Source of the DNA: Crocosphaera subtropica ATCC 51142
GTDB lineage: Bacteria > Cyanobacteriota > Cyanobacteriia > Cyanobacteriales > Microcystaceae
Direction: 5' to 3'
DNA length: 10,244 bases
Assembly (NCBI RefSeq): GCF_000017845.1
Contig: NC_010543.1
Span: forward strand, 1 to 10,244
Below, in pieces: positions 1 through 10,244 of this stretch; positions within the stretch are counted from its first letter, which is position 1, and the number at the start of each line of letters is the position of its first letter. Both the position numbers and the translations under genes were made by a program. Below the pieces are notes generated by a model. It was not told where the DNA came from, made no database searches, and was given only the letters and a program-made list of their open reading frames with translations.

Positions 1-21
1 TCAAGAATGGGGATGAGTGGG
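1..21. repeat. Right half of a ~60-bp direct repeat (copy A) split across the window ends; the intact second copy is at 2231-2291
   Basis: 1-21 tcaagaatggggatgagtggg matches 2271-2291 at 20/21 positions. The left half of copy A is 10206-10244. The segment overlaps the last six codons and the stop of the recombinase gene. Confidence 0.8.
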
Positions 22-657
22 AGATGGTGTGGAGTTATCTTGGAGGGGTTGAGGATCACGAAAGCTACTTTTCCCGATATATGACAAACTCGATAAAGAC
101 GCGATCGCGCCTTTGACTTGATCTGGTTTGACTTCCAGGTAGGCATGGAGTTGGGTGAGGTTGTGATGGCCGCTGATTTCGGCGATGACTCGGAAGGGGA
201 TGTTAGCGTCGCTCATTTGGGTCAGGGCGGTGCGTCGGAAGCTGTGGGTGCTGACTCCTTCTAGTCCGATGGAACGACAGGCTTTACGGAGGATCAGGGA
301 GGCACTGTCGGGGTGAAGGTGGCCTTTGTTCCAACGTCCAGGGAAGAGGTATTCGTTCTCTGAATTGGGTCTATATTGCCCTAGAAGGTGTCTTAAATCC
401 TCTGAGGTAGGAATTGTTCGGCTGGCTAGTTTACCCTTGCTGTTGCCCTTTCTGATGGTCATGTAGGGTCGGACGGTTCCGAGGCGATCATATGCGTCGG
501 CAGTGAGTTGAGTGACGGCTTCGTTAATTCGACAAGCGGTATAGAGGCAAAAGCCGAATAGAGTGCGATCTCGTTGGGTTTTAAGTCCTTGGTTGAAGAG
601 GAGGTAAATTTCTTCAGGGGTAAGGATTTTAGCTTTGCCGTGCCGTTCTCGTTTCAT
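1..657 (-). CDS. Tyrosine recombinase / phage-integrase family, catalytic domain only (218 aa)
   Basis: ATG at 657-655 and TGA at 3-1. Catalytic residues are readable: Arg in TACRINEA, H-x-x-R in THSFRRT, His in SGHHN, Tyr in HAYLEV. The first catalytic Arg is at residue ~43, so the usual ~100-aa N-terminal core-binding domain is absent. The gene lies 18 bp downstream of, and co-oriented with, the 676-1170 gene. Confidence 0.9.
   Translation of the reverse strand: MKRERHGKAKILTPEEIYLLFNQGLKTQRDRTLFGFCLYTACRINEAVTQLTADAYDRLGTVRPYMTIRKGNSKGKLASRTIPTSEDLRHLLGQYRPNSENEYLFPGRWNKGHLHPDSASLILRKACRSIGLEGVSTHSFRRTALTQMSDANIPFRVIAEISGHHNLTQLHAYLEVKPDQVKGAIASLSSLSYIGKSSFRDPQPLQDNSTPSPTHPHS
101..108. 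repeat. HIP1 octamer GCGATCGC (cyanobacterial highly iterated palindrome), single copy
   Basis: Exact GCGATCGC read at 101-108. It is used only as a taxonomic hint. Confidence 0.6.
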
Positions 658-675
658 GGCTGGTGTTTAAAGTAA

Positions 676-1170
676 TTATTCTGGTTGATCGGATTTAGTG
701 GCGTTTTCAACGGCTTTTAAGTGTCTTTCTTTCAAGTCTCTGCGTCTTTGGTCATCTTCTTCTCGGCGGTAGTCGTTGAGGTTTTTAACTTTGCCTTTCC
801 AGCCGTAGTAGGGATTTAATCGAAAAGCATAGGAGCGTCCAACTTTGGGACCTCTGAGAATAATCCCTTTCTCTTCAAGAACAGAAATAGCCCTAGAAAC
901 ATTAGGCTTTTTCATCTCAAGCTTTTCTGAAATTTCATTTTGAGTGACTTGAATCCAGTTTTCAAAGTCGAGACGGGATAGCAAAAGTAAAAGAACCCTA
1001 TAAGTTTCACCTTTAAGGTCTTTATCAGTGGCTAGGAGTTCTAATGCTTCTTGACTATTCATGACCCAACCCGTTGAATAAGGATTCTGCTTAACTCCAC
1101 AATAAACTACTACTCCATCTAAAACTTCGCCTGTGTCTTGATCTACCGAGGCTATATTTCTACGTTTCAT
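676..1170 (-). CDS. Winged-helix DNA-binding protein, RepL-like (replication/maintenance) or recombination regulator
   Basis: I prefer the ATG at 1170-1168 (MKRRNIAS...), which has GGAGAG 5 nt upstream, over the TTG at 1185 used by the ORF track. The pattern GWVMNSQEALELL...YRVLLLLLSRLDFENWIQVTQNEISEKLEMKKPNVSRAISVLEEKGIILR...YAFRLNPYYGWKG fits a RepL/MarR-type winged helix. The C-terminus is basic and acidic. Confidence 0.7.
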   Translation of the reverse strand: MKRRNIASVDQDTGEVLDGVVVYCGVKQNPYSTGWVMNSQEALELLATDKDLKGETYRVLLLLLSRLDFENWIQVTQNEISEKLEMKKPNVSRAISVLEEKGIILRGPKVGRSYAFRLNPYYGWKGKVKNLNDYRREEDDQRRRDLKERHLKAVENATKSDQPE

Positions 1171-1187
1171 TAGGCTCTCCAACAAAT

Positions 1188-1228
1188 AGTTATCATATAT
1201 GATAATTGAGTTATCATATATGATAACT
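1188..1228. promoter_or_regulatory. Two tandem palindromic operator sites overlapping a sigma70-like promoter for the 1170->1 operon
   Basis: AGTTATCATATATGATAACT at 1209-1228 is a perfect 20-bp palindrome. 1188-1207 agttatcatatatgataatt matches it at 18/20, with a perfect 16-bp core TTATCATATATGATAA at 1190-1205. The two centres are 21 bp apart. On the minus strand, TTGAAA (1241-1236), a 17-nt spacer and TATGAT (1218-1213) place the -10 inside the distal palindrome. Confidence 0.6.
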
Positions 1229-1465
1229 ATCCAATTTTCAAACCCTTATGTAGAGCCACTCATAAGTAGGTTCCTTTATGTCTCTTGTAATAAAAATCTA
1301 TAAGCTGTGCTTATCAATGGGGGTGTAATCCGAACTGGACAAAGCTCTTAAGAGATTTTAACTAAAATTAATAATATTTTTAGATTTACCTAGAGAATTA
1401 GTGTTTATTATTACAGCATTACATTATTAAAAAAAGAATTGTGAATTGTAAGGAGTTAATTAATT

Positions 1466-2113
1466 ATGAAAGTATCAAATTTCAAAAAGCCATTAATTTA
1501 TTTAATTTTATCCGTAACTTTAGTTAACATATTTGCTGATAAAGCTGATGCTTTTAAGTTAGAACTTAAAAGAGTCGGTGAATGGGATCAAATGATTTTT
1601 AATCCTTTCACGGGTAATAAAATTGGAACAATTACAGTACCTCACTTTAGGTTAGAAAAAATAGAAATTCAGTTAGGTCTTAATAATACAGGAAAAGTTT
1701 TTCTAGATAAAGGAGTATTAGCAAACAACTTTTTAGAAGATTTAGGTGAAGGAGTTATTCCAGTTACAATGGATGGTCAAGAAATTGCATTTGATAATAC
1801 CATGTTTCCCGATATTCCAGGATCTGGATTTACAACAGATACTAATAACGGAACTAATTTTTTAATAACTTTTGATGAGCCTTTTACGGAACCAGTAGGA
1901 TCAATTGTAGATGTTTCAGATATGAACATTTTAATATCAACTCCTTTAAATGTTTTTGATACTTCTTTAGTTGAAGGAAGTGTTTTTAACAGTGCAATGA
2001 CGGATAGTGAACCTGCTGAAATAGTTTCTACACCTGAAAAGTCTGTATCTTCTATAACTTTATTGAGCTTATTAGGAGTAGGAATGTTTTTGAAAAAGAA
2101 AGTAAATGTATAA
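1466..2113 (+). CDS. Secreted protein with a PEP-CTERM-like C-terminal sorting signal (215 aa)
   Basis: AAGGAG at 1450-1455 lies 10 nt before the ATG. The N-terminal signal peptide is LIYLILSVTLVNIFADKADA/FK. The C-terminus is TPEKSVSS + hydrophobic ITLLSLLGVGMFL + KKK. The gene is visibly more AT-rich than the integrase operon. Confidence 0.75.
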   Translation: MKVSNFKKPLIYLILSVTLVNIFADKADAFKLELKRVGEWDQMIFNPFTGNKIGTITVPHFRLEKIEIQLGLNNTGKVFLDKGVLANNFLEDLGEGVIPVTMDGQEIAFDNTMFPDIPGSGFTTDTNNGTNFLITFDEPFTEPVGSIVDVSDMNILISTPLNVFDTSLVEGSVFNSAMTDSEPAEIVSTPEKSVSSITLLSLLGVGMFLKKKVNV

Positions 2114-2150
2114 AAAGCTTGGAATGGTTGTATATCCTATATACCTGTTG

Positions 2151-2182
2151 CTCTACACTGAGTATGAATACTTAGTGTAGAG
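2151..2182 (+). terminator. Strong stem-loop between the convergent genes (possible terminator, no T-tract)
   Basis: ctctacactgagtat (2151-2165), loop ga, atacttagtgtagag (2168-2182). This is a 15-bp stem with one G:U-type position. No U-run follows, so intrinsic-terminator function is uncertain. Confidence 0.4.
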
Positions 2183-2230
2183 ACGATTTAAGCAGCCCAC
2201 CAGGGGGGCAGTTAGCGCAGGGGGTAGTGA

Positions 2231-2291
2231 AGAAATAATGCGACGATAGGAGCAACGATCTTGCTTGTCTTCAAGAATTGGGATGAGTGGG
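2231..2291. repeat. Copy B of the ~60-bp direct repeat (candidate att/recombination site)
   Basis: agaaataa (2231-2238) equals 10206-10213. tgcgacgataggagcaacgatctt (2239-2262) is identical to 10217-10240. tcaagaattgggatgagtggg (2271-2291) matches 1-21 at 20/21. The copies differ by a 3-nt and a 4-nt indel. Copy B sits in the intergenic space between the convergent PEP-CTERM genes. Confidence 0.85.
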
Positions 2292-2320
2292 GAATAATGT
2301 GCCTTGAGTATAAGTGATCA

Positions 2321-3493
2321 CTAATTATTGTGTTTATGTTTAGGAATCAAACTTATAACTAAAATTGAGAAAGTGAAAAGACTTAATAAGGAAGAAGACT
2401 CTGGAACGGTTACTGAGGTAATGCGCCAAATTTTTCCTGCTCCGGCTCGATTTGTTCCATCTGAAACAAACAAACCTCCACCAAGTATGCCTTCAGTATC
2501 AAATGCTACATCAATAGCATCTATATTTGTCAAAAACGGAATTAGAGTTCCATCAGGTTTTAGGGTAAAAAGTGTTCCATCGTCATTCCCGAAACTACTG
2601 CCTTCTGTAGCAACAAAAAGATCAGAACCAAACACTCCACCTGGGCCTAGTTCAATAAGTTCCAAACCGCTCAGACCATCAACTAAAAGAGTAGAAGTTC
2701 CATCTAAATTAACTAAAAAAAGTGCATCATTCATTGTTGCCTCTCCATCTGTTTGCAATGAAAAGGTTCCTGTAACAAACCCTCCCCCTTCTTGCCATTG
2801 TCCAAGATCATTAATAGAAGCATAAGCGGCTGGTTTATGGCGATGAATAAATGTAGTTAAAGTTGGCTCTGGAAAAATAGCTGAAGACACAGAAGCAAAA
2901 ACATTACTACTTCCATCTGAATTAATTTGAAGAATATCTCTTGAGGCTTGAGAATCTGATCCAATTGAGCCATCAGTAGCGAATATAACACCACCAGGTC
3001 CATAAGTTAATACAGGAGGACCAAAAGGTGATGATGAAATATTTGAAGCAAAAGTTGTGAGAGTCCCGTCAGAAAGCAAACGGCGAATTCTTTGATCACG
3101 CGGCTCTGAAATCAGAATACCGTCTCCGTATGAACCTCTCGCAAAAAGCATTGATTCTGCGCTATTTAACTGATCTGTAACTATAGAAATAGTTCCTGCG
3201 TGATCTATTCTCATTAAACGATTACCACCAGGTAAAAAACTGGGTCCAGGGGTTACATACAATCCTGCTGGAAAACCATTTTCTCCACTAGAAATTGTTA
3301 ATTGAAATGCGTCTAGATCTGGATCTATAGATGCCAAATCTACAAAAAGCTCAACTTTAAAACGGTCAGAATTTACTAAAGTAGGAACAGCTTTAGCATT
3401 AGGTATAGAACCCATAGTTAAACTAATAAAAACACTAATAAAACTAGGTAAAGAAGATAATATTTTTCGAGAAAAGTTATCAAATAAAAACAT
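2321..3493 (-). CDS. Secreted beta-propeller-like repeat protein with a PEP-CTERM-like C-terminus (390 aa)
   Basis: Signal peptide ...SVFISLTMGSIPNAKA/VP. Recurrent (S/L/D)DG(T/S)xxxF/L strand motifs are present (SDGTLTTFAS, SDGSSNVFAS, LDGTSTLLVD, DDGTLFTLKPDGTLIPFL). The C-terminus is VPESSS + hydrophobic LLSLFTFSILVISLI + PKHKH. Confidence 0.8.
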   Translation of the reverse strand: MFLFDNFSRKILSSLPSFISVFISLTMGSIPNAKAVPTLVNSDRFKVELFVDLASIDPDLDAFQLTISSGENGFPAGLYVTPGPSFLPGGNRLMRIDHAGTISIVTDQLNSAESMLFARGSYGDGILISEPRDQRIRRLLSDGTLTTFASNISSSPFGPPVLTYGPGGVIFATDGSIGSDSQASRDILQINSDGSSNVFASVSSAIFPEPTLTTFIHRHKPAAYASINDLGQWQEGGGFVTGTFSLQTDGEATMNDALFLVNLDGTSTLLVDGLSGLELIELGPGGVFGSDLFVATEGSSFGNDDGTLFTLKPDGTLIPFLTNIDAIDVAFDTEGILGGGLFVSDGTNRAGAGKIWRITSVTVPESSSLLSLFTFSILVISLIPKHKHNN

Positions 3494-3595
3494 ATTTTTA
3501 TTTAAAAAAATTTACTGCTACAAAATTAGTATAGTTAAAAAATAAAAAAATTAAATTAAATTAAGATTAAGTAATGATGCCTATGGTTAAGTGGT

Positions 3596-5986
3596 TTAAA
3601 GTGAAAATCCTCTACCTCGACTACGTTTCTGCTCTTGTTCTCTTTCCCATCTTAATTGAGCCATAAGAGCCTCATTCCAATCTTTATGATGGTTTGGCAC
3701 TACTCGACTAAGTTGAGCCGTAGAAGGAGCAATATTATTAAGCTCCTGAGCGATTCCCTGACCAGCTTCATCCTTATCAGTAGCGATAATAATTTGTCCC
3801 CCTTGGCTGTGGATCTTCTCAAAGGCTGTTTTAAGTAGGGTTTTCTGCTTTTCTGATAACGTGCCACCGGTGGCCATATAACGGGTGTTGGCATCAGGGA
3901 ATAGTTGATGATAGCTTAAGCAGTCTAGAGGGCTTTCACAGATGACTAATTTAGTATCAGTAGAGGCTGGTTTAGAGAACCATAGCCCTTTACTGCCACC
4001 TTTAGAGAAGCCTTTAAACTGTTGGTTACGAATTTCATAGCCACAGATACCCTCACGGTCATGGTAAGGAAAAATGACATTATTACGGCTGTCAGTGTAG
4101 ATTTTGTCTTGAAATTTAGGATTACTGGTGGTTTGTGGGTTGATGCCTCGTTGGGTAAGATAAGGATGGTTTGTAATGGGTTTAAAGCGTTCAAATTGAG
4201 TGAGTATGTTGTGTCTATCTGGGGTGCTTGGGGTTAGTTTAGGGGTAGATTTTTTAGGGGTGTAAGTAGAAGAATAGGTATCATTTAACCAGGGTCTAAG
4301 TTCTTTTCTAACTTCTCCTAAGTTGAGGTTTCTTTTATTCTGAATAAAGTCAATGATTGAGCCACTATCTCTATCATCTTTAACGGATGAGTAAAAATAG
4401 TGTCCATCGGCTTGATTAAGACCAACGAGAATCTTATCCCCTTGGTTATCTTTGAGGACAAGACAATTAACTGAACTTTTTTTCTTATCTATAGTATAAC
4501 CTTGTGTTTGAGCATAATCAGCTAGGTTAATTTGTTTGCATCGATGCAACTCTTCAGCTTGTTTATCTGCTATTTTTCTAAGACGTTCATGATGTCTTGA
4601 TAAGCGTTTTCGAGTTCGGTTATCCTGTTCGATAAGTTGTTGATGGTGCTGTTGAGTGAGTTGATTTGCTTGGTTAAGTTGGTCATTTGTTCGTTCTGTT
4701 GTTGCTTGTCCTTCTCGTATTGAATGGCAAAGTTCTTGAAGGTTTCTAGTAGCTCTTTTTCTAGTTGGTTCATCGTCTTCTTCTACAGCTTTAAGCAGGG
4801 CTTGCCTTTGCATTTCCAATTGGTCTTGTGATTGCTGTTGGGAGGTAATATTATGAATTTCCCTTGACTGGTTTGATAAAGTTCTATCCCCCAAGTCTTC
4901 TGCTTGAGTTGATTGAGGGTGATTCTGTTGGTTTGAATTTGTTGAAATTGTTTTGTTAAATATTGAGTCATCCCCCAACTGCCTATCAAGGAACCTGTTA
5001 AGAGGCTGATAAGAATTGTCCCTGGCAGTAGTGAAGTCCATTTCAGATGGTTTTTGATATTCTGTTGAGTAGCTTGAATATCGTTGGTGATGGTAGTCTC
5101 TACGTTTTGACACATTTTCTGACAGTTTTTCTTGAGCTTGTTTAATTCTTGATTGATTATCTGCTCTTGTTGCTGTCTGTCCTGTTGCCGTTTCCGTTGT
5201 AGGTTCTTGTCCAAGTCGCCAAGATGCACTATAAATTCCTCCTTTTAATCTAATGCGTTTATTTAGGTCATCATGGGTAACGGTGATGTAATCTTCCCCT
5301 TGCCTTGTAATGGTAAAGGCTGCGTCTTCTAGGGTGGTAATGATATCGTTACGGTTTTGGATCTGTCCTTCTTCTATATAAGCCGTTAAGTAATTGGTGA
5401 TGATCTTCCGAGCATCGTCCCGGCTGATGGGGGTTTGTCCAGCAAGTTCTAAGCGATGGTTTTGGGCATTAATTAAGGCTTGATGACCAGGATAATAGGT
5501 TCTAGAGCGTTCTGGGTCATCGGGGCTTGCCCATCCTTGAGAAGTGTTCCAAAGGTCACGCCAGGGTCTAAAGTAACTTTCCCATCCAGGGGGAGCAATA
5601 TTTAAGCTTTTACCAGTGGTTAATTCAACTCTAGGGGTAACAAAATGGAGTTCTACCCTATCATTGCCTGTGTGGGTATGCCTTACCCATAAAATGTCAT
5701 ACTGATCCTTATCTAATCCAGCAAAGGCGACGTTTTCAAAGGAGTTAATAAGGGCTTGTTGTTGTTCATTGTTAGGAGCATCTTCAGGAGCAAAGCTAAG
5801 AACGCCACTACGGTATTTATGTTTGAAGTTTAGGGAATCAATTAAGTTAATGGTTTGTTGAGGATCTCCTTTAATTAGTTCGGGTTGAGGGTCACGAATG
5901 ATACCTTTAGCATCAGTTTCTTTAAGGATATATTCAACTGGGGCTTTACCTTTTCCCGTCCCACGGTCAAAGAACTTAAGTAACAT
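3596..5986 (-). CDS. MOB relaxase (ColE1 MbeA-like, MobA/VirD2 relaxase domain) fused to a DUF3991 + Toprim primase-like C-terminal domain
   Basis: I prefer the ATG at 5986-5984 (MLLKFFDRGTGKGKAPVEYIL...), which has GAGGA 9 nt upstream and an 11-bp overlap with the mobC stop; the ORF-track start at 6040 runs through mobC. The N-terminus parallels MbeA as I recall it: KFxxRGxGxGxxPVxYxL with Tyr19, YRSGVLSF, and WVRHTHTGNDRVELHFVTP as the metal-binding motif. Next comes a Q/S/N-rich linker. The C-terminal part has a DUF3991-like segment (NLADYAQTQGYTID...GSIIDFIQ) and a Toprim domain (LVICESPLD ... IIIATDKDEAG at ~3761-3790). Confidence 0.9.
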   Translation of the reverse strand: MLLKFFDRGTGKGKAPVEYILKETDAKGIIRDPQPELIKGDPQQTINLIDSLNFKHKYRSGVLSFAPEDAPNNEQQQALINSFENVAFAGLDKDQYDILWVRHTHTGNDRVELHFVTPRVELTTGKSLNIAPPGWESYFRPWRDLWNTSQGWASPDDPERSRTYYPGHQALINAQNHRLELAGQTPISRDDARKIITNYLTAYIEEGQIQNRNDIITTLEDAAFTITRQGEDYITVTHDDLNKRIRLKGGIYSASWRLGQEPTTETATGQTATRADNQSRIKQAQEKLSENVSKRRDYHHQRYSSYSTEYQKPSEMDFTTARDNSYQPLNRFLDRQLGDDSIFNKTISTNSNQQNHPQSTQAEDLGDRTLSNQSREIHNITSQQQSQDQLEMQRQALLKAVEEDDEPTRKRATRNLQELCHSIREGQATTERTNDQLNQANQLTQQHHQQLIEQDNRTRKRLSRHHERLRKIADKQAEELHRCKQINLADYAQTQGYTIDKKKSSVNCLVLKDNQGDKILVGLNQADGHYFYSSVKDDRDSGSIIDFIQNKRNLNLGEVRKELRPWLNDTYSSTYTPKKSTPKLTPSTPDRHNILTQFERFKPITNHPYLTQRGINPQTTSNPKFQDKIYTDSRNNVIFPYHDREGICGYEIRNQQFKGFSKGGSKGLWFSKPASTDTKLVICESPLDCLSYHQLFPDANTRYMATGGTLSEKQKTLLKTAFEKIHSQGGQIIIATDKDEAGQGIAQELNNIAPSTAQLSRVVPNHHKDWNEALMAQLRWEREQEQKRSRGRGFSL
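4570..4773 (-). CDS. Candidate overprinted gene inside the relaxase gene: 67-aa coiled-coil protein, MbeD/MobD-like
   Basis: ATG at 4773-4771, 9 nt after the TAG of the 4783-5229 ORF and in the same frame as it. That frame differs from the relaxase frame. The heptad-like sequence is MNQLEKELLETFKNFAIQYEKDKQQQNEQMTNLTKQINSLNSTINNLSNRITELENAYQ. Confidence 0.45.
   Translation of the reverse strand: MNQLEKELLETFKNFAIQYEKDKQQQNEQMTNLTKQINSLNSTINNLSNRITELENAYQDIMNVLEK
4783..5229 (-). CDS. Candidate overprinted gene inside the relaxase gene: 148-aa membrane-anchored protein, MobB/MbeB-like accessory
   Basis: GTG start at 5229-5227, preceded by a perfect AAGGAGG (5244-5238) with an 8-nt spacer. The frame differs from the relaxase frame. 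The product has a charged, Q-rich coiled-coil N-terminus, one clear TM helix (WTSLLPGTILISLLTGSLIGSWGM) and a small C-terminal domain (WGIELYQTSQGKFIILPP...WKCKGKPCLKL). Confidence 0.55.
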   Translation of the reverse strand: MHLGDLDKNLQRKRQQDRQQQEQIINQELNKLKKNCQKMCQNVETTITNDIQATQQNIKNHLKWTSLLPGTILISLLTGSLIGSWGMTQYLTKQFQQIQTNRITLNQLKQKTWGIELYQTSQGKFIILPPNSNHKTNWKCKGKPCLKL

Positions 5987-6335
5987 CTTCGTTGTCCTCT
6001 GAATTAGGAGAAGGTTTATCAGATTTAACTGATAGTTCATGTAGGGTTTCTTGGATCAGTCTAAGAGCTTGAATAACCTCAATAGCTTCGGCGGTTTGTT
6101 TGTAGGTATTAGCCCATTTAGCGATTTGGTTTAGATTATTGCCAATGCGAGCGATCTGCCTAGTTTGTTCTTGAACTAATGAACTATTTGAAGCTGTCCA
6201 AGTTCGAGTTTTGGACATAGCTTGTCGGATAAGATTAGAGAGAGTAAGACCTGAGAGTACGGCCTTTTCTTGCCAAGCTAATTTTTCAGAAGGAGTTACC
6301 CGAATTGTTAGATTAATGTTACGTTTCTCAGTCAT
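5976..6335 (-). CDS. mobC: MobC/MbeC-family relaxosome accessory protein (ribbon-helix-helix N-terminus)
   Basis: I prefer the ATG at 6335-6333 (MTEKRNINLTIRVTPSEKLAWQEKAVLSGLTLSNLIRQA...). The longer track ORF to 6434 reads through G5/C5 repeat DNA. The RHH motif plus the IARIGNNLNQIAKWAN motif are typical of MobC. The stop overlaps the relaxase start, suggesting translational coupling. Confidence 0.85.
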   Translation of the reverse strand: MTEKRNINLTIRVTPSEKLAWQEKAVLSGLTLSNLIRQAMSKTRTWTASNSSLVQEQTRQIARIGNNLNQIAKWANTYKQTAEAIEVIQALRLIQETLHELSVKSDKPSPNSEDNEDVT

Positions 6336-6350
6336 AATAAAAAGAGAAGA

Positions 6351-6648
6351 ACATTCCTTTCCCATCTGCCCGAAGGGGGTTTTAGGGGGTTTCCCCCTAA
6401 ACAGCAGCCCCATGTTAGAATCTTTGTGATTCAACTATAACATAAGTACATGGGGTCTGCTGGCTTCCGCTTCACGGAAGGGACTACACTGAAAGGCTAT
6501 CTAGGGGTAATGGGGTTACAGTAATAAGATAATTATAAGGTATTTTCCTAATCGGAAAATAGTTATTTGTGAATGGGGGATAATCCCCCAAACCCCCTTA
6601 CTGGGGGACACCCCCAGACCCCCATTAGGGCAGATGGGAAAGGAATGT
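6351..6648. other. Candidate oriT / highly structured element bounded by perfect 21-bp inverted repeats
   Basis: acattcctttcccatctgccc (6351-6371) is the exact reverse complement of 6628-6648. Internal hairpins: tttaggggg-ttt-ccccctaaa (6381-6401), cttccg-cttca-cggaag (6464-6480), tattttcc-taatc-ggaaaata (6541-6561), ggggg-ataat-ccccc (6575-6589), ctggggg-aca-cccccag (6601-6617). The element lies immediately upstream of mobC-relaxase. Confidence 0.55.
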
Positions 6649-6772
6649 CTTTGTTTGATTAATTGGTTTAATATTGATAGTAGTTATTATGGAGGTGGGA
6701 TTATAGAAAGGCAAACATTGGGGGCTTTAGAGAGGGCTTATTTGTCACTTCAGGATATAGTGACTAATTTAT

Positions 6773-6931
6773 ATGGTGAAGCGACTGTTTGAAATAGGAA
6801 AATTAACGGTAGGACAAGCAGCAGAATTGGCGGGTTATTCTAAACCGACTTTTATCGAGTTACTTGGTAAATTAGGGGTTCCTGTGATTGATTATCCCCC
6901 CCAAGAATTAGAAGAGGAAAAAATTACTTAA
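6773..6931 (+). CDS. Small ORF (52 aa), UPF0175-family antitoxin-like; possibly N-terminally truncated
   Basis: This ORF is not in the supplied track, probably because it is short. The translation is MVKRLFEIGKLTVGQAAELAGYSKPTFIELLGKLGVPVIDYPPQELEEEKIT*. The G-x-AAELAG...F..LL...G(I/V)P....EL.EE pattern is typical of UPF0175 C-terminal halves. There is no obvious SD, an in-frame stop lies 9 nt upstream, and no PIN-type partner gene follows. Confidence 0.4.
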   Translation: MVKRLFEIGKLTVGQAAELAGYSKPTFIELLGKLGVPVIDYPPQELEEEKIT

Positions 6932-7087
6932 TTTATCTTTTTATAAAATAAGTATAACATTATAACGTGATTTTAGTTACAGTGTTATTAACTTTGTTAT
7001 ACACTTATAAATTAAATGGTTAATAATCACGATAATTAGAGTTGACTATAACTACAGTTTAGTTTTTATTTAAAACGGTGTTTTTAA

Positions 7088-7124
7088 ATGTGTCCAACAT
7101 TGTACACTATTATGTTAGACACAT
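7088..7124. repeat. 13-bp inverted repeat carrying the TGTC(C/T)AACA motif, downstream of the 7203-7490 gene
   Basis: atgtgtccaacat (7088-7100) and atgttagacacat (7112-7124) are reverse complements at 12/13, with an 11-nt spacer. They share their core with the sites at 8279-8331 and 8566-8577. Confidence 0.5.
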
Positions 7125-7202
7125 AATAGTAAAAATTGGCTATTGATGGGGAATAGTACCCCAGACAACCGTTATGTAGATGAAAAAAGGGTGGTGTTTT
7201 TT

Positions 7203-7490
7203 CTAAAAGGGGTCAATAGCATAGGTTAATAATTCCTTAGTGATTCGGTTAAAGTCTTTGATTGACTGAGCTTGATCTAATTGATTTAATAGAGCTTGTC
7301 TATCGTCTTCTTTGGGGAAGTAATGCCCTTTAAAACTTGTCCAGTGTTTGAGATACCCTCTAATTAAATCAGCATCTTCTTGGTTAAAGTTTGAGGAGTT
7401 ACTAAATAGCTTTTTGACGGCGTTAGGTAATTGACCGCTTTGTTCGTTTCTCCAATAAACTAAGGTATGGTCTGGATAGTTATAAAACAT
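7203..7490 (-). CDS. Hypothetical protein (95 aa), second gene of the RHH-GIY-YIG operon
   Basis: ATG at 7490, with AGAGG ~10 nt upstream and a 33-bp gap after the upstream gene. I recognise no motif in MFYNYPDHTLVYWRNEQSGQLPNAVKK...ELLTYAIDPF. Confidence 0.65.
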   Translation of the reverse strand: MFYNYPDHTLVYWRNEQSGQLPNAVKKLFSNSSNFNQEDADLIRGYLKHWTSFKGHYFPKEDDRQALLNQLDQAQSIKDFNRITKELLTYAIDPF

Positions 7491-7523
7491 TTTATTTTGC
7501 CTCTGATTGTGTTAGTTAATAGC

Positions 7524-8279
7524 TTAGGATTGAAAGAATTTAGACAAGCTGCTTCCTTCTTCAGTGGGTCGATATTTCCAACCGCTTAACTCTTCAAGGT
7601 ACTCAATGGGGTCAACTTCTAATAAGGAAGCTGCATCCTCTAAGTCCTTAACTGTATTGAAACCGAAATGCTTGGCTAAACCACTGCGAGTAACGCCTTC
7701 TCGTAAGTCTTCTGATGAGGGGTTCCATTCTTGTAACCCTCGTTTGGGTAAGTAGTTTTGAAGCTTCTTAACTACCTTCTCTGACCCAAGTTGAACCAAA
7801 ACTGATAAGGTATCATTGAACTGCTTTTTAAGGGTGGTCAATTCCTGTTCTAGTTTCTCAAATTGGTCAGAGGTTACTAATGCTTTGGTTTGAATTGTCT
7901 CAGTGGGTTCTGATTGGAACTCTTCTATAGTTTGGTTTAGGTTATCAACAGAGTCAAAAGTAAAGTAACCTATACGGGAATCCATAGAGGACTCTATAAA
8001 GTATTGATACTTGTGATGACTATTCCAACGAGTTCTTAAGTTATCTGCTTTGCCAATGTAGAGAAGTTGATGGTCTAAAGTATAAACAAAATAGATTCCA
8101 GGTTGAGAGGGTAATTTTACCCGTTCAGTGATATGAACCGAGGGTATAGAACTTAGTAACATCCCGATAATTACATCGGTCTTATTTTGTCGAGTCTGTT
8201 CTACTTGTTCATCAATACCCTTCATTAACTCAGAGGGACATCTGATAGTAAAGCTTGATGTGGATTGAGTTTTAGCCAT
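7524..8279 (-). CDS. Ribbon-helix-helix + GIY-YIG nuclease-domain protein with an unknown C-terminal domain
   Basis: I prefer the ATG at 8279-8277 (MAKTQSTSS...); the ORF track starts at the TTG at 8288. RHH-like N-terminus: FTIRCPSELMKGIDEQVEQTRQNKTDVIIGMLLSS. GIY-YIG motif: PGIYFVYTLDHQLLYIGKADNLRTRWNSHH. This is followed by a coiled-coil stretch and a ~90-aa C-terminal region. Confidence 0.8.
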   Translation of the reverse strand: MAKTQSTSSFTIRCPSELMKGIDEQVEQTRQNKTDVIIGMLLSSIPSVHITERVKLPSQPGIYFVYTLDHQLLYIGKADNLRTRWNSHHKYQYFIESSMDSRIGYFTFDSVDNLNQTIEEFQSEPTETIQTKALVTSDQFEKLEQELTTLKKQFNDTLSVLVQLGSEKVVKKLQNYLPKRGLQEWNPSSEDLREGVTRSGLAKHFGFNTVKDLEDAASLLEVDPIEYLEELSGWKYRPTEEGSSLSKFFQS

Positions 8280-8331
8280 GTTAGACAACGTTAATTATTT
8301 TAACTTGTATTGTAATCTAATTTGTCTAACA
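8279..8331. promoter_or_regulatory. Inverted TTGTCTAACA sites bracketing the promoter/start region of the RHH-GIY-YIG gene (candidate RHH operator)
   Basis: tgttagacaa (8279-8288, overlapping the start codon) is the exact reverse complement of ttgtctaaca (8322-8331), with a 33-bp spacer. The spacer contains TACAAT and TAAAAT -10-like hexamers on the minus strand. Confidence 0.5.
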
Positions 8332-8565
8332 AATGTAAGTGAAATAACCTAATTATACTTAACTGATACAAATAGTAAAATTAACTAACTACTTATAGTT
8401 ACGCTGCACATATAAACGTATAACACTGTTAAACAATATGTATATTATACTGTTTAATTTAGGAGTATTTAAAAATATAAGTAAGCACGAGTAAACTGTC
8501 TTTACTTAATAAAGTAAATTACATAAGACAGTGTTGTGTTGTTAAATATATAGTGTAGTTGATTA

Positions 8566-8577
8566 TGTCTAACAAAT
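8566..8577. repeat. Additional direct copy of the TGTCTAACAAAT 12-mer
   Basis: tgtctaacaaat at 8566-8577 is identical to 8323-8334. Confidence 0.5.
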
Positions 8578-8884
8578 ATAGTTATTTATTCAGAAAGCTG
8601 GTTAAACTTGAGAGTTAATATAAGAGTTTAGCTAATTCACTTAATAAATTAATTAGAGTATTATCTTAATAAGAATGCACTGTATAATAAATAAAATTAT
8701 AAATACTTTCAGCTTAGACTGTAACTGTATGTTAAGTAGTTAATTTGTTATTGTTATTATTTGTATTTTTCTGATAGAGTAAAAATAATGATCCTCTATG
8801 AAAAGCATTAATATCTTTTCTAAACTACTTAAATGTTTAGATTTTAGGTTCATAAATTAAAATTTGATATTAAATCTTCACAAA

Positions 8885-9370
8885 ATGTTAAATCGTTTAA
8901 ATTGGCCTGAAATTGTTGGTGGAATTATTGGAAGTATTTTAACAGTTTTTGGTTTATATCTATTTGATAAAATTGGTTTAATTAGTTCAGAAATTGTTAT
9001 TCCATCAAAGGCAATAATTCCTTTTAATTCAAATGAATGTCCTAGTGGTTGGTCAGATTATAGTCAAAGTGCTGGTCGTTTTATTATCGGTGTTGGTCAA
9101 GGAAGTAATCTTACAGAGAGAAGATTGGGAGATTTAGGTGGAACAGAAAAACATATGTTAACTGTTGATGAGATACCACAACATTATCATAACTACGAAG
9201 ATTATCATTATTATGATCAAGAGATAGGTGATCCAAATTATCAAACTCCTCAGGGTGATGAAACTGGTATATTAAAATATAGAGAAGGACAAACTACCGA
9301 AATTGGCGGGGGAAAACCTCATGAGAATATACCACCTTTTGTTGCCTTAAAATATTGTGAAAAAGAATAA
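8885..9370 (+). CDS. Membrane-anchored phage-tail-collar-domain (MdpB/COG4675-like) protein
   Basis: I prefer the ATG at 8885; the ORF track starts at the TTG at 8864. N-terminal TM helix: WPEIVGGIIGSILTVFGLYLF. Tail-collar-like core: AIIPFNSNECPSGW...GRFIIGVGQGSNLTERRLGDLGGTEKHMLTVDEIPQHYH...GGGKPHENIPPFVALKYC. Confidence 0.7.
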   Translation: MLNRLNWPEIVGGIIGSILTVFGLYLFDKIGLISSEIVIPSKAIIPFNSNECPSGWSDYSQSAGRFIIGVGQGSNLTERRLGDLGGTEKHMLTVDEIPQHYHNYEDYHYYDQEIGDPNYQTPQGDETGILKYREGQTTEIGGGKPHENIPPFVALKYCEKE

Positions 9371-9425
9371 TAATAAAAATAATATTTATCACGCTAAACT
9401 GTAATCCCTAGAAGGGACATTTGAT

Positions 9426-9944
9426 TTAGGTTTCTGGCTCTGTTTCTTTACCTTTAAGCATTACCATTAGACGGCGTTTAACATCGCCGTTGTCTTCTTT
9501 GCGGGCTAAAGTCTTAGTAGTAAAAGCTGCATATTTCTTGCTAGTATTCCAGCTTTTCCAAACTTCATCTGGATCTAAACAGTAAGCATAAACTGTTCCT
9601 GCTCCTAACTTAATTCGTAAGACAATATTGTTTTCATCAAGCCATTTGGTTCCTCTTTGAACTGAGCGAATACTAATATCTAATTCATCAGCTAGTAGTT
9701 GTTGAGAAGCAACAACAGCACCCGTACCAGGTTCAATGTGTTTGGCTAAAAACATATAGATTCTGGCAGCTAATGGATATTCTCCAAGAATACCTATAAC
9801 TCTATCAAAGCCTTTTGGATACATTTGAACAAAGTTTTTGTTTTTTTTTCTATCTTTATTTTTCTGTTCTTCGTTTAACCGTTCATCGACTAATTGTATG
9901 AAACGTTGTAAACGATCTTCTGTTGTTGCAGCGGTCTTATCCAT
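9426..9944 (-). CDS. Second RepL-like winged-helix protein (candidate plasmid replication/maintenance protein)
   Basis: ATG at 9944-9942. The sequence NFVQMYPKGFDRVIGILGEYPLAARIYMFLAKHIEPGTGAVVASQQLLADELDISIRSVQRGTKWLDENNIVLRIKLGAGTVYAYCLDPDEVWK has the same architecture as the 676-1170 product. Confidence 0.7.
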   Translation of the reverse strand: MDKTAATTEDRLQRFIQLVDERLNEEQKNKDRKKNKNFVQMYPKGFDRVIGILGEYPLAARIYMFLAKHIEPGTGAVVASQQLLADELDISIRSVQRGTKWLDENNIVLRIKLGAGTVYAYCLDPDEVWKSWNTSKKYAAFTTKTLARKEDNGDVKRRLMVMLKGKETEPET

Positions 9945-9986
9945 CTTAGAAATTCATTTGTCCGGTGTACCTGCCATTTCAGTCAA

Positions 9987-10017
9987 ATTATACGACGGAT
10001 GTGTCGTAATTTACGAC
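9987..10017 (-). promoter_or_regulatory. Putative promoter with TACGAC/GTCGTA operator repeats for the 9426-9944 gene
   Basis: Perfect TATAAT on the minus strand (9992-9987). It is embedded in tacgac (9991-9996), gtcgta (10003-10008) and tacgac (10012-10017), which form two overlapping palindromic sites. No convincing -35 was found. Confidence 0.4.
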
Positions 10018-10036
10018 AAATTTTTTCACCATTTAT

Positions 10037-10070
10037 CTAAGTATTTTTACTTACACTAAGTATTTTTACT
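10037..10070. repeat. Two direct 15-bp repeats CTAAGTATTTTTACT (iteron-like)
   Basis: 10037-10051 and 10056-10070 are identical, with a 19-bp period. They lie upstream of the putative promoter of the second RepL-like gene. Confidence 0.6.
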
Positions 10071-10073
10071 CAT

Positions 10074-10111
10074 GACACGCTAATGGCAGGTAGACACGCC
10101 ATTAGCGTGTC
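10074..10111. repeat. Perfect 14-bp-stem palindrome/hairpin
   Basis: gacacgctaatggc (10074-10087) and gccattagcgtgtc (10098-10111) are exact reverse complements, with the 10-nt loop aggtagacac. Confidence 0.65.
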
Positions 10112-10205
10112 AGGGGGTCAAGGGCTGAAACCTGCATGAAATAAGGATCTTTTATTTTTTCCTTCTTATCTCAGTTAATGAAGGGGTCTGGGGAACACTT
10201 TTCCC

Positions 10206-10244
10206 AGAAATAAAACTGCGACGATAGGAGCAACGATCTTCCTT
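10206..10244. repeat. Left half of direct repeat copy A (continues at 1-21 if the molecule is circular)
   Basis: agaaataa + aac + tgcgacgataggagcaacgatctt + cctt. The 24-mer at 10217-10240 is identical to 2239-2262. Confidence 0.85.

Follow-up and report, generated by a model that had tools for sequence, protein, structure and literature searches.

A small circular plasmid of Crocosphaera subtropica with two replicon modules and a repeated recombinase junction, a possible scar of plasmid fusion

Introduction

Several described systems combine a recombinase gene with repeated or shared sites. Lambda-type prophages have the layout attL-int-xis...attR. Plasmid multimers are resolved by cer/XerCD in ColE1, Cre-loxP in P1 and ResD-rfsF in F, with one site per monomer. 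In Myxococcus phage Mx8 (intP/attP) and in Sulfolobus SSV1, attP lies within the integrase gene; both are viral integrases that target chromosomal tRNA genes, and Mx8 integration turns intP into intX. Small staphylococcal rolling-circle (RC) plasmids form cointegrates via RSA/Pre or via Rep at origins, and RepL is the initiator family of pSN2-type plasmids. Here we analyse a stretch of 10,244 nucleotides from Crocosphaera subtropica ATCC 51142 (contig NC_010543.1, positions 1 to 10,244; hereafter the window), in which a tyrosine recombinase gene runs into one of the two copies, A and B, of a ~60-nt direct repeat. Experiments on Acinetobacter have established that plasmid cointegrates are formed and resolved at XerC/D-like (pdif) sites, by the host XerC/XerD and 28-bp 11-6-11 sites (PMC5790767).

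The explanation that we put first is that the window is a complete circular, mobilisable plasmid of 10,244 bp from a unicellular cyanobacterium, that its two replicon modules were fused, probably by a recombinase, into a form that is now stable, and that the A/B repeat is the scar of this fusion rather than a demonstrably excisable element. We hold this explanation, taken whole, with about as much doubt as confidence.

Results

The plasmid and its direct repeat

The ends of the window are adjacent: contigs from independent Logan assemblies (labelled L, like the related contigs below) cross 10244|1 with 100% identity to the window (L001, run SRR6257742, window 976..1 + 10244..9859; L002, SRR26036488, 47..1 + 10244..9094; L003, SRR26036489, 77..1 + 10244..9199). 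With L005 (1575-9228) and L007 (828-6505) they cover the whole circle. Thus, the window is a complete closed circular replicon of 10,244 bp, which bears out the proposal of a first-pass annotation that it is a circle linearised inside copy A. Copies A and B divide the circle into arcs of 2.27 kb and 7.98 kb. The smaller arc contains the recombinase, a RepL-like winged-helix protein with a presumed palindromic operator and one secreted-protein gene; the larger contains RepL, a relaxase-primase, NikA/MobC, a ribbon-helix-helix (RHH)-GIY-YIG protein, a small open reading frame (ORF) of the UPF0175 family and one secreted-protein gene. The repeats therefore bracket the recombinase, the winged-helix gene and one AT-rich secreted-protein gene, as had been annotated.

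In a local alignment against 2151-2400, the circular junction (10206-10244 + 1-21) pairs with 2231-2291 in direct orientation, in the order 8 identical positions, a 3-nt indel, 27 positions with 1 mismatch, a 4-nt indel and 22 positions with 1 mismatch. An identical 24-mer, TGCGACGATAGGAGCAACGATCTT, lies within the 27-nt segment. The best local score of a junction 120-mer against the rest of the plasmid was 84, compared with 22.3 ± 2.4 (maximum 33) in 200 block shuffles, so that alignment and shuffles confirm the ~60-bp direct repeat first noticed by inspection. A repeat search lists its halves separately (D1 and D2); gapless extension of D2 matches 1-31 to 2271-2301 at 84%. Even with 6 mismatches allowed, the window holds the 21-mer core exactly twice.

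Both copies read on the minus strand. The distal half of copy A (10206..10244), directly 3' of the recombinase stop codon, holds a 24-nt invariant 'head' (complement of AAGATCGTTGCTCCTATCGTCGCA) and the start of an element that we term alpha; its proximal half (1..31) holds the stop codon (1-3) and the last ~10 tail codons of the recombinase. Copy B (2231..2301) consists of a ~31-nt relic of the recombinase tail with a stop codon (2271-2301), a spacer of 8 nt, as against 4 nt in copy A, and the identical 24-nt head. The relic, PTHPNS* against PTHPHS* at the recombinase end, can be read straight from sequence and translation, as the first-pass annotation did, and has the CCCAATTCTTGA variant that also occurs in a relic on contig L016. 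No recombinase gene body lies upstream of copy B, which is located between two convergent cargo genes, and no significant extension into the recombinase core or tail was obtained (scores as high as the observed one arose in 180/500 and in 814-2076 of 3000 shuffles). A TTAGTGAT half-site at the stop codon of the adjoining 390-aa gene matches at 7/9, the chance level, and was rejected.

A 19-mer scan of metagenomes returned four related contigs (L014, L016, L018 and L020), each with the identical head at a recombinase 3' end and with alpha following it, and three chance matches in unrelated high-GC contigs. This rules out a generic dispersed repeat: the possibility that the 60-mer sits at many loci had been raised by the annotation, and all four real matches lie at a recombinase 3' end. 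The head is invariant across lineages when compared among the relative contigs, each of which carries one copy; two copies occur only in the window. PLSDB holds no match to either repeat region, and no tRNA or known RNA was found at the repeats. A relaxase nic site in the 24-mer was rejected by eye (no ATCCTG-type match); the probable oriT lies at 6338-6661 instead.

The two Rep-type genes

One Rep-type gene lies in each arc, and the arcs may thus each have replicated separately. The small arc encodes a winged helix-turn-helix (wHTH) protein of 164-169 aa (676..1185, minus strand), which is MarR-like and has a marginal RepL match (21.2 bits, cutoff 20.3). Its gene and that of the recombinase stay paired in L011, L012, L013 and L022. 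Since the 5.1-kb circle L013 appears to have no other Rep candidate, the wHTH protein is probably an initiator or regulator of a small replicon and not an Xis. Directly upstream of the gene, two perfect 20-nt palindromic units, ATAGTTATCATATATGATAA and TTATCATATATGATAACTAT (1186..1230), are kept in L011 and L022 and are likely an operator or iteron set. An exact look-up found no record of the 164-aa protein, and our literature search found no description of a recombinase/wHTH cassette.

The large arc encodes RepL (9426..9944, minus strand; 172 aa; PF05732 32.9 bits, cutoff 20.3), the candidate initiator of this arc, which is 63% identical to its homologue in L024 and 30% identical to the wHTH protein over 54 aa. 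Its upstream region (10037..10112) contains two 15-nt direct repeats, CTAAGTATTTTTACT (10037-10051 and 10056-10070), and a perfect 15-bp inverted repeat (10073-10087 / 10098-10112); we presume it to be a control or origin region.

Junction elements

Alpha (10129..10205, minus strand) carries the hairpin CTGGGAAAAGTGTTCCCCAG and is kept downstream of the recombinase in relatives, even beside unrelated RepL genes (the 172-aa RepL of the window and RepL202 of L021/L022 are unrelated). Window 10129-10244 is 100% identical to L016 1-116 and 92% identical to L014. Recombinase, copy A and a RepL-type gene recur in several related plasmids, and a RepL-type gene comes after the recombinase in L014, L018, L021, L022 and L024. 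On these comparisons, copy A is the inherited junction of a plasmid group, between the recombinase stop codon and the RepL upstream region, and not a fresh insertion boundary.

At copy B, the head is followed by another element of the GC-hairpin family to which alpha belongs, beta (2178..2262 including the head, minus strand), with a GC-rich hairpin block (TTTAAGCAGCCC..GGGGGC..GCGCAGGGGGTA). Relatives of beta adjoin the recombinase/RepL regions of L016 (two copies), L021, L022 and L024; the hairpin shows a single compensatory change. A palindrome (2151..2182) some 50 nt past beta is made of two inverted copies of ATACTTAGTGTAGAG; its motif matches the iteron-like repeats upstream of RepL (10052-10072) at 19/21, which 0/200 shuffles reach. 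When the repeat regions were folded, only the 2151-2182 hairpin appeared and the alpha region was unremarkable. Since beta, the tail relic with its stop codon and the iteron-like palindrome occur together, the copy B region is, judging by its sequence, a partial paralogue of the entire recombinase-to-RepL intergenic region and not a minimal att site. We found no description of alpha or beta elements in the literature.

Related plasmids and the fusion

L012 is circular (119-nt overlap) and is an 11.5-kb heterodimer-like cointegrate of two syntenic plasmids (1-11631). One half carries wHTH and recombinase, the other a 154-aa gene in their place, and homology between the halves resumes exactly past the recombinase stop codon. 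The 5.1-kb component was found alone, as L013 (1-5240), in another metagenome. The L012 fusion junction itself falls within 115 nt of 92% identity, at a distance from the recombinase.

Brackets like that of the window recur. In L022 and L021, ~150 nt from the recombinase stop codon are repeated (87%) in direct orientation upstream of a wHTH-containing module, and L011 has a 19-nt direct repeat in the equivalent places. L016 carries an int-less relic (core, tail, stop, head and alpha) in its stretch identical to window 10129-10244; beside it lie a different recombinase (48% identical) and wHTH (37%), and a beta element closes the bracket. Together, the brackets, the L012/L013 pair and the L016 relic show that fusion and module exchange recur beside the recombinase 3' end in this family. 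The wHTH-recombinase pair is a portable unit, found again beside Rep genes that are unrelated.

Relics of the recombinase gene and deletions turn up often in the family (L016, L010 and L020). L010, a contig of 'Unicellular cyanobacterium SU3', has ~4.7 kb of backbone in common with the window at 89-91% nucleotide identity, the mobilisation block (3596..6434) matching at 91%; a search of genome contigs with the recombinase gave two distant loci only, and L010 is nevertheless a backbone relative. At 10973-11209 it carries a relic of the recombinase N-terminus and wHTH 3' end, 90% identical to window 505-728 and 1.6 kb from the relaxase, and it also carries a second recombinase, 64% identical. 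In L020 (1324-1800) RepL is truncated: a deletion equivalent to window 9819-10182 joins RepL codon ~43 to alpha, so RepL is dispensable in at least one relative.

How might the two arcs have been joined? What we observe is a circle, a direct repeat, two Rep-type genes, an inherited copy A, a paralogous copy B region and, in relatives, recurrent brackets and fusions. From these features we infer that a small wHTH-recombinase replicon would have fused with an int-less RepL/MOB plasmid bearing a vestigial junction. The crossover would have fallen inside the shared 24-nt head, in which case alpha and beta tails would differ while the 24-nt block stays identical. The plasmid-borne recombinase would be the likely catalyst, and the fused form would now be stable. 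Consistent with this scheme, an int-less vestigial junction exists (the L016 relic), and fusion is documented in the family by L012 and its free component L013. As in pdif- or cer-like cointegrates, two arcs with a replication gene each are separated by directly repeated related sites. An inverted-arm core around a 6-8-bp centre was not found in both copies; the sole core-like motif (55-78) is single-copy.

Several observations weigh against fusion by the recombinase at the repeat. (i) The parental plasmids of the window were not found separately, as they were for its relative (L013 alone, L012 fused), and a free 2.3-kb or 8-kb form was not found either: every contig of five runs that crosses A or B has the fused arrangement. 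Contigs of 2.0-2.2 kb with recombinase homologues (P0026 and P0005), considered as free 2-kb mini-circles, proved to be fragments. (ii) The 24-mer does not vary between lineages, so that constraint accounts for its being identical in A and B, and this identity neither dates nor places a crossover. (iii) The 60-mer contains no dyad-symmetric recombinase-type core visible by eye, its spacers differ by 4 nt, and no second copy of the 55-78 core is detectable at copy B (no significant match). (iv) In L021 and L022 the 150-nt unit lies ~300-400 nt upstream of three different genes, after a palindromic promoter-like sequence, a placement that fits a cis-regulatory or origin element as well as a recombination site. 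(v) The outcome would look no different if RecA-type recombination had joined homologous junction regions and deletions had come after it.

The recombinase and a candidate core in its gene

The recombinase (1..657, minus strand; 218 aa) consists of a catalytic domain only (PF00589 68.5 bits, cutoff 27.1, residues 13-177). It aligns to XerA (4a8e) over residues 103-278 only, and the catalytic alignment begins at its own residue ~3-10. The catalytic residues are present, as judged by eye from the translation and the XerA alignment: R43 (ACRINE), K~75, H139-x-x-R142 (HSFRR), H165 (GHH) and Y173 (LHAYL). 'Simple' Xer-like tyrosine recombinases consist of core-binding and catalytic domains (PMC8138268). 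The window protein has no N-terminal core-binding domain, for which 218 aa leave no room, and no arm-binding domain, and its XerC/XerD/XerA equivalog scores are far under the cutoffs (58 vs 220; 35 vs 335). Its family comprises at least 1655 homologues of ~215-240 aa, nearly all cyanobacterial and many plasmid-borne. Distant homologues are single-copy genes that adjoin ParA or Rep genes on complete cyanobacterial plasmids, which fits a maintenance or resolution role; the everyday role of the recombinase is probably multimer or cointegrate resolution. The gene has a GC content of 52%, compared with 27-40% elsewhere on the plasmid. A HIP1 octamer, GCGATCGC, lies within it (103-110), at a position kept in most close homologues. 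As a further example of repeats that abut the 3' end of a gene of this family, Nostoc plasmid pNPM10 (L028, 3053-3300) has a 31-38-nt motif four times in tandem, at intervals of ~70 nt, starting at the stop codon of a distant recombinase homologue.

Could the recombinase act within its own gene? Close homologues are conserved in protein sequence up to ...SYIGK-xx-FRD and then continue in unrelated tail classes, even in genes that are 80-94% identical. At the DNA level this point corresponds to a candidate core, ATCGGGAAA-AGTAGC-TTTCGTGAT (55..78, minus strand), which encodes IGK-SS-FRD. As a crossover site it is a better candidate than the 60-mer. Its arms, ATCGG(G/A)AAA and T(T/A)TCGTGAT, are nearly invariant, the right arm falling within the lowest 4% of windows for variability; the 6-nt centre differs in almost every lineage and ranks in the top 10 of 598 gene windows. 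These figures come from only ~10 DNA sequences.

Conceivably, then, the recombinase acts at 55-78, and crossovers at ATCGGGAAA-N6-TTTCGTGAT swap the C-terminal tail and what lies downstream between plasmids, A and B being by-products. Copy B would be the remnant of a second recombinase 3' region after fusion and deletion, which makes this proposal partly compatible with the explanation that we favour. It is a tentative one. Besides the near-invariant arms, variable centre and unrelated tails, the breaks in homology speak for it: the L016 relic begins to match the window exactly at the left arm, and homology between the window and L021/L022 breaks at 53/54. Moreover, the IGKxxFRD motif is absent from distant homologues and is therefore not a general protein constraint. 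However, the 7/9 dyad of the core is not significant alone, since chance is estimated to produce such a dyad a few times in each gene; a C-terminal tail that is disordered except for a short anchor motif would look hypervariable too; and a second core is missing not only at copy B but also at the distal repeats in L021 and L022, upstream of which there is at most a weak trace of a core or tail (11/500 and 258/500). At 6551, another core-like site carries 5 mismatches, an estimated chance level, and the core pattern had no matches in the viral contigs scanned. L003 and L002, from different runs, end at or near 55-78 (window 77 and 47), which may mark a branch of the assembly graph, with core and tail in a second context, or a coverage gap.

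Generalised, the proposal reads as follows: recombinases of ~215 aa that lack a core-binding domain, in a cassette with a RepL-like wHTH protein, might recombine at a core in the last ~80 nt of their own gene; the variable 6-bp centre would give each lineage a private specificity, and crossovers would swap the tail and the downstream Rep/origin module. We regard this as a speculative possibility.

Possible cis-acting elements

Alternatively, A and B may be cis-acting control or origin elements rather than recombination sites. Two copies would then stem from two present or former replicon regions, which homologous or illegitimate recombination brought together and deletions trimmed, and the recombinase would only resolve multimers, at another site. 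Several features agree with this: alpha and beta units form arrays between recombinase and RepL in L024, L021 and L022; the copy B flank has the iteron-like palindrome related to the RepL upstream repeats; and the placement of the L021/L022 unit, the invariance of the 24-mer and the frequency of relics and deletions in the family are what such elements could produce. Yet copy B is flanked by the 3' ends of two convergent cargo genes instead of preceding a Rep gene, alpha stays with the recombinase beside unrelated RepL genes as well, and the gene-less copy B keeps tail codons and stop at 20/21 identity, which is unexpected for a neutral relic. On balance, this alternative is a serious one, though we find it rather doubtful.

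Excision

If A and B recombined precisely, the circle junction would read ...GGGGGTAGTGAAGAAATAATGCGACGATAGGAGCAACGATCTT + (CCTT or GCTTGTCT) + TCAAGAATGGGGATGAGTGGGAGATGG..., and the empty site ...CCCAGAAATAAAACTGCGACGATAGGAGCAACGATCTT + spacer + TCAAGAATTGGGATGAGTGGGGAATAATGTGCC.... Neither a circle junction nor an empty site was found in the assembled contigs of the five runs or, by the 19-mer scan, in metagenomes. Thus neither the 2.3-kb circle nor the ~8-kb empty site envisaged by the first-pass annotation turned up. Today the fused form would be stable and predominant, and excision may have ceased to be possible.

An active integrated element, with A and B as attL and attR and a recombinase, perhaps with the wHTH protein as directionality factor, that excises a 2.27-kb circle and reinserts it at similar plasmid sites, is consequently unlikely. 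The repeats are indeed direct and one overlaps the recombinase stop codon; matching brackets enclose different module contents in L021, L022, L011 and L016; the L012 halves have their module boundaries at the stop codon of their recombinase gene; and the alpha variants of L021 and L022 are interchanged. Against this stand the missing excision products, the 4-nt spacer indel and lack of a dyad-symmetric core by eye, a recombinase without arm- and core-binding domains, a wHTH protein that resembles RepL/MarR and is apparently the sole Rep candidate of L013, and the head, single in each relative contig and double only in the window. The lambda-type attL-int...attR arrangement first annotated is unsupported or weakened on similar grounds: arm- and core-binding domains are missing, the neighbour of the recombinase looks like a RepL-type protein rather than an Xis, no tRNA or chromosomal target was found, copy A is inherited, and the copies show no dyad core by eye and have a 4-nt spacer indel. 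That annotation's other suggestion, a cointegrate of ~2.3-kb and ~8-kb circles with a RepL-like gene each, is favoured by the comparative data; its claim that the cointegrate is resolvable is unsupported, all contigs across either copy being fused. Finally, an assembly artefact, in which terminal repeat and circularity arose by misassembly or from a concatemer, is almost certainly wrong, since the independent Logan assemblies of five runs give both junctions and the 100%-identity tiling, and we found no point in its favour.

Other genes of the plasmid

The large arc encodes a relaxase-DUF3991-Toprim fusion (3596..6040, minus strand; PF03432 25.8 bits, cutoff 24.6) and a NikA/MobC accessory protein (5976..6434, minus strand; NikA-like 58.5 bits, MobC 51.1 bits). 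With both a relaxase domain and an accessory protein, the plasmid is, on its gene content, mobilisable. Its sole DNA match in PLSDB is the relaxase of a Rippkaea orientalis plasmid. Long inverted repeats with G-run and C-run motifs surround the NikA/MobC gene start (6338-6661) and are probably oriT; the motif also occurs in L012 and L013, which lack a relaxase and might be mobilised in trans.

Two cargo genes converge on copy B. The first (1466..2113, plus strand; 215 aa, AT-rich) has, by eye, a signal-peptide-like N-terminus and a PEP-CTERM-like C-terminus (VPESSSLLSLF...KHK). The second (2321..3493, minus strand; 390 aa, secreted), whose stop codon lies ~20 nt from the copy B relic, has by the same inspection a signal-peptide-like N-terminus and a PEP-CTERM-like tail (TPEKSVSSITLLSLLGVGMFLKKK). 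Neither protein has a Pfam or NCBIfam match. A 52-aa ORF (6773-6931, plus strand) bears the Pfam tag of the UPF0175 family. The RHH + GIY-YIG protein (7524-8288, minus strand; 254 aa) is kept in L010, L012, L013, L014, L020 and L023, and its gene comes directly after the recombinase in L012, L013 and L023. A 168-aa ORF (8864-9370) with a membrane-like N-terminal segment has a weak, sub-cutoff match (24 bits) to the C-terminal domain of phage baseplate Gp10 and is absent from the relative L014.

Discussion

The closest experimentally documented analogue of the fusion that we favour is fusion and resolution at XerC/D sites in Acinetobacter. On this reading, both cases involve small, modular, mosaic plasmids that a tyrosine recombinase joins at short, related sites, with a hybrid-site pair and bracketed modules. 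In contrast to the pdif system, the recombinase of the window is plasmid-encoded and has no core-binding domain, no such core is seen in the repeat, and fusion and resolution are here predictions from sequence.

The lambda analogy holds for layout only. Direct repeats flank a segment and the integrase gene reads toward one of them; however, there is no arm-binding domain, no Xis-like gene and no target in a chromosome or tRNA gene, the copies lack a defined overlap over which they agree throughout, and one 'att' is inherited by several plasmids. The copies do have an identical 24-mer, next to which the spacer differs by 4 nt; no dyad is visible by eye, and the 24-mer is in any case invariant across lineages. 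Multimer resolution systems resemble the locus in their single plasmid tyrosine recombinase gene near replication or partition genes, with a site that adjoins the gene. Unlike them, the window has two related copies in direct repeat and a ~218-aa protein without an N-terminal DNA-binding domain.

If the 55-78 core were real, recombination would alter the 3' end of the recombinase gene, as Mx8 integration does; the exchange would take place between plasmids and be limited to the last ~17-22 codons. With staphylococcal RC plasmids the window shares the fusion of small, multicopy, cassette-structured plasmids at short shared sequences near replication functions, whereas the repeat shows neither a recognisable Pre/Mob-type recombination site nor an HUH Rep, and oriT is probably at another place (6338-6661). 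A composite or cointegrate plasmid with recombinase-associated junction repeats is familiar; what differs here is a recombinase without a core-binding domain coupled to a RepL-like protein, and the alpha and beta junction elements.

What would these findings mean? Little is known of small cyanobacterial plasmids, which are in demand as vector backbones, and this one offers two candidate replicons, a mobilisation block, a recombinase cassette and defined junctions. If the embedded core is not real, the window would be an ordinary composite plasmid with a duplicated junction. If an embedded, spacer-variable core is real, it would provide natural orthogonal recombination sites for a very small recombinase, of interest to plasmid biologists and tool builders alike; the cassette would then reshuffle replicon modules among small plasmids that reside in one cell, leaving traces of which the A/B repeat would be one fossil. 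The portable wHTH-recombinase pair beside unrelated Rep genes offers a concrete, testable model of plasmid mosaicism.

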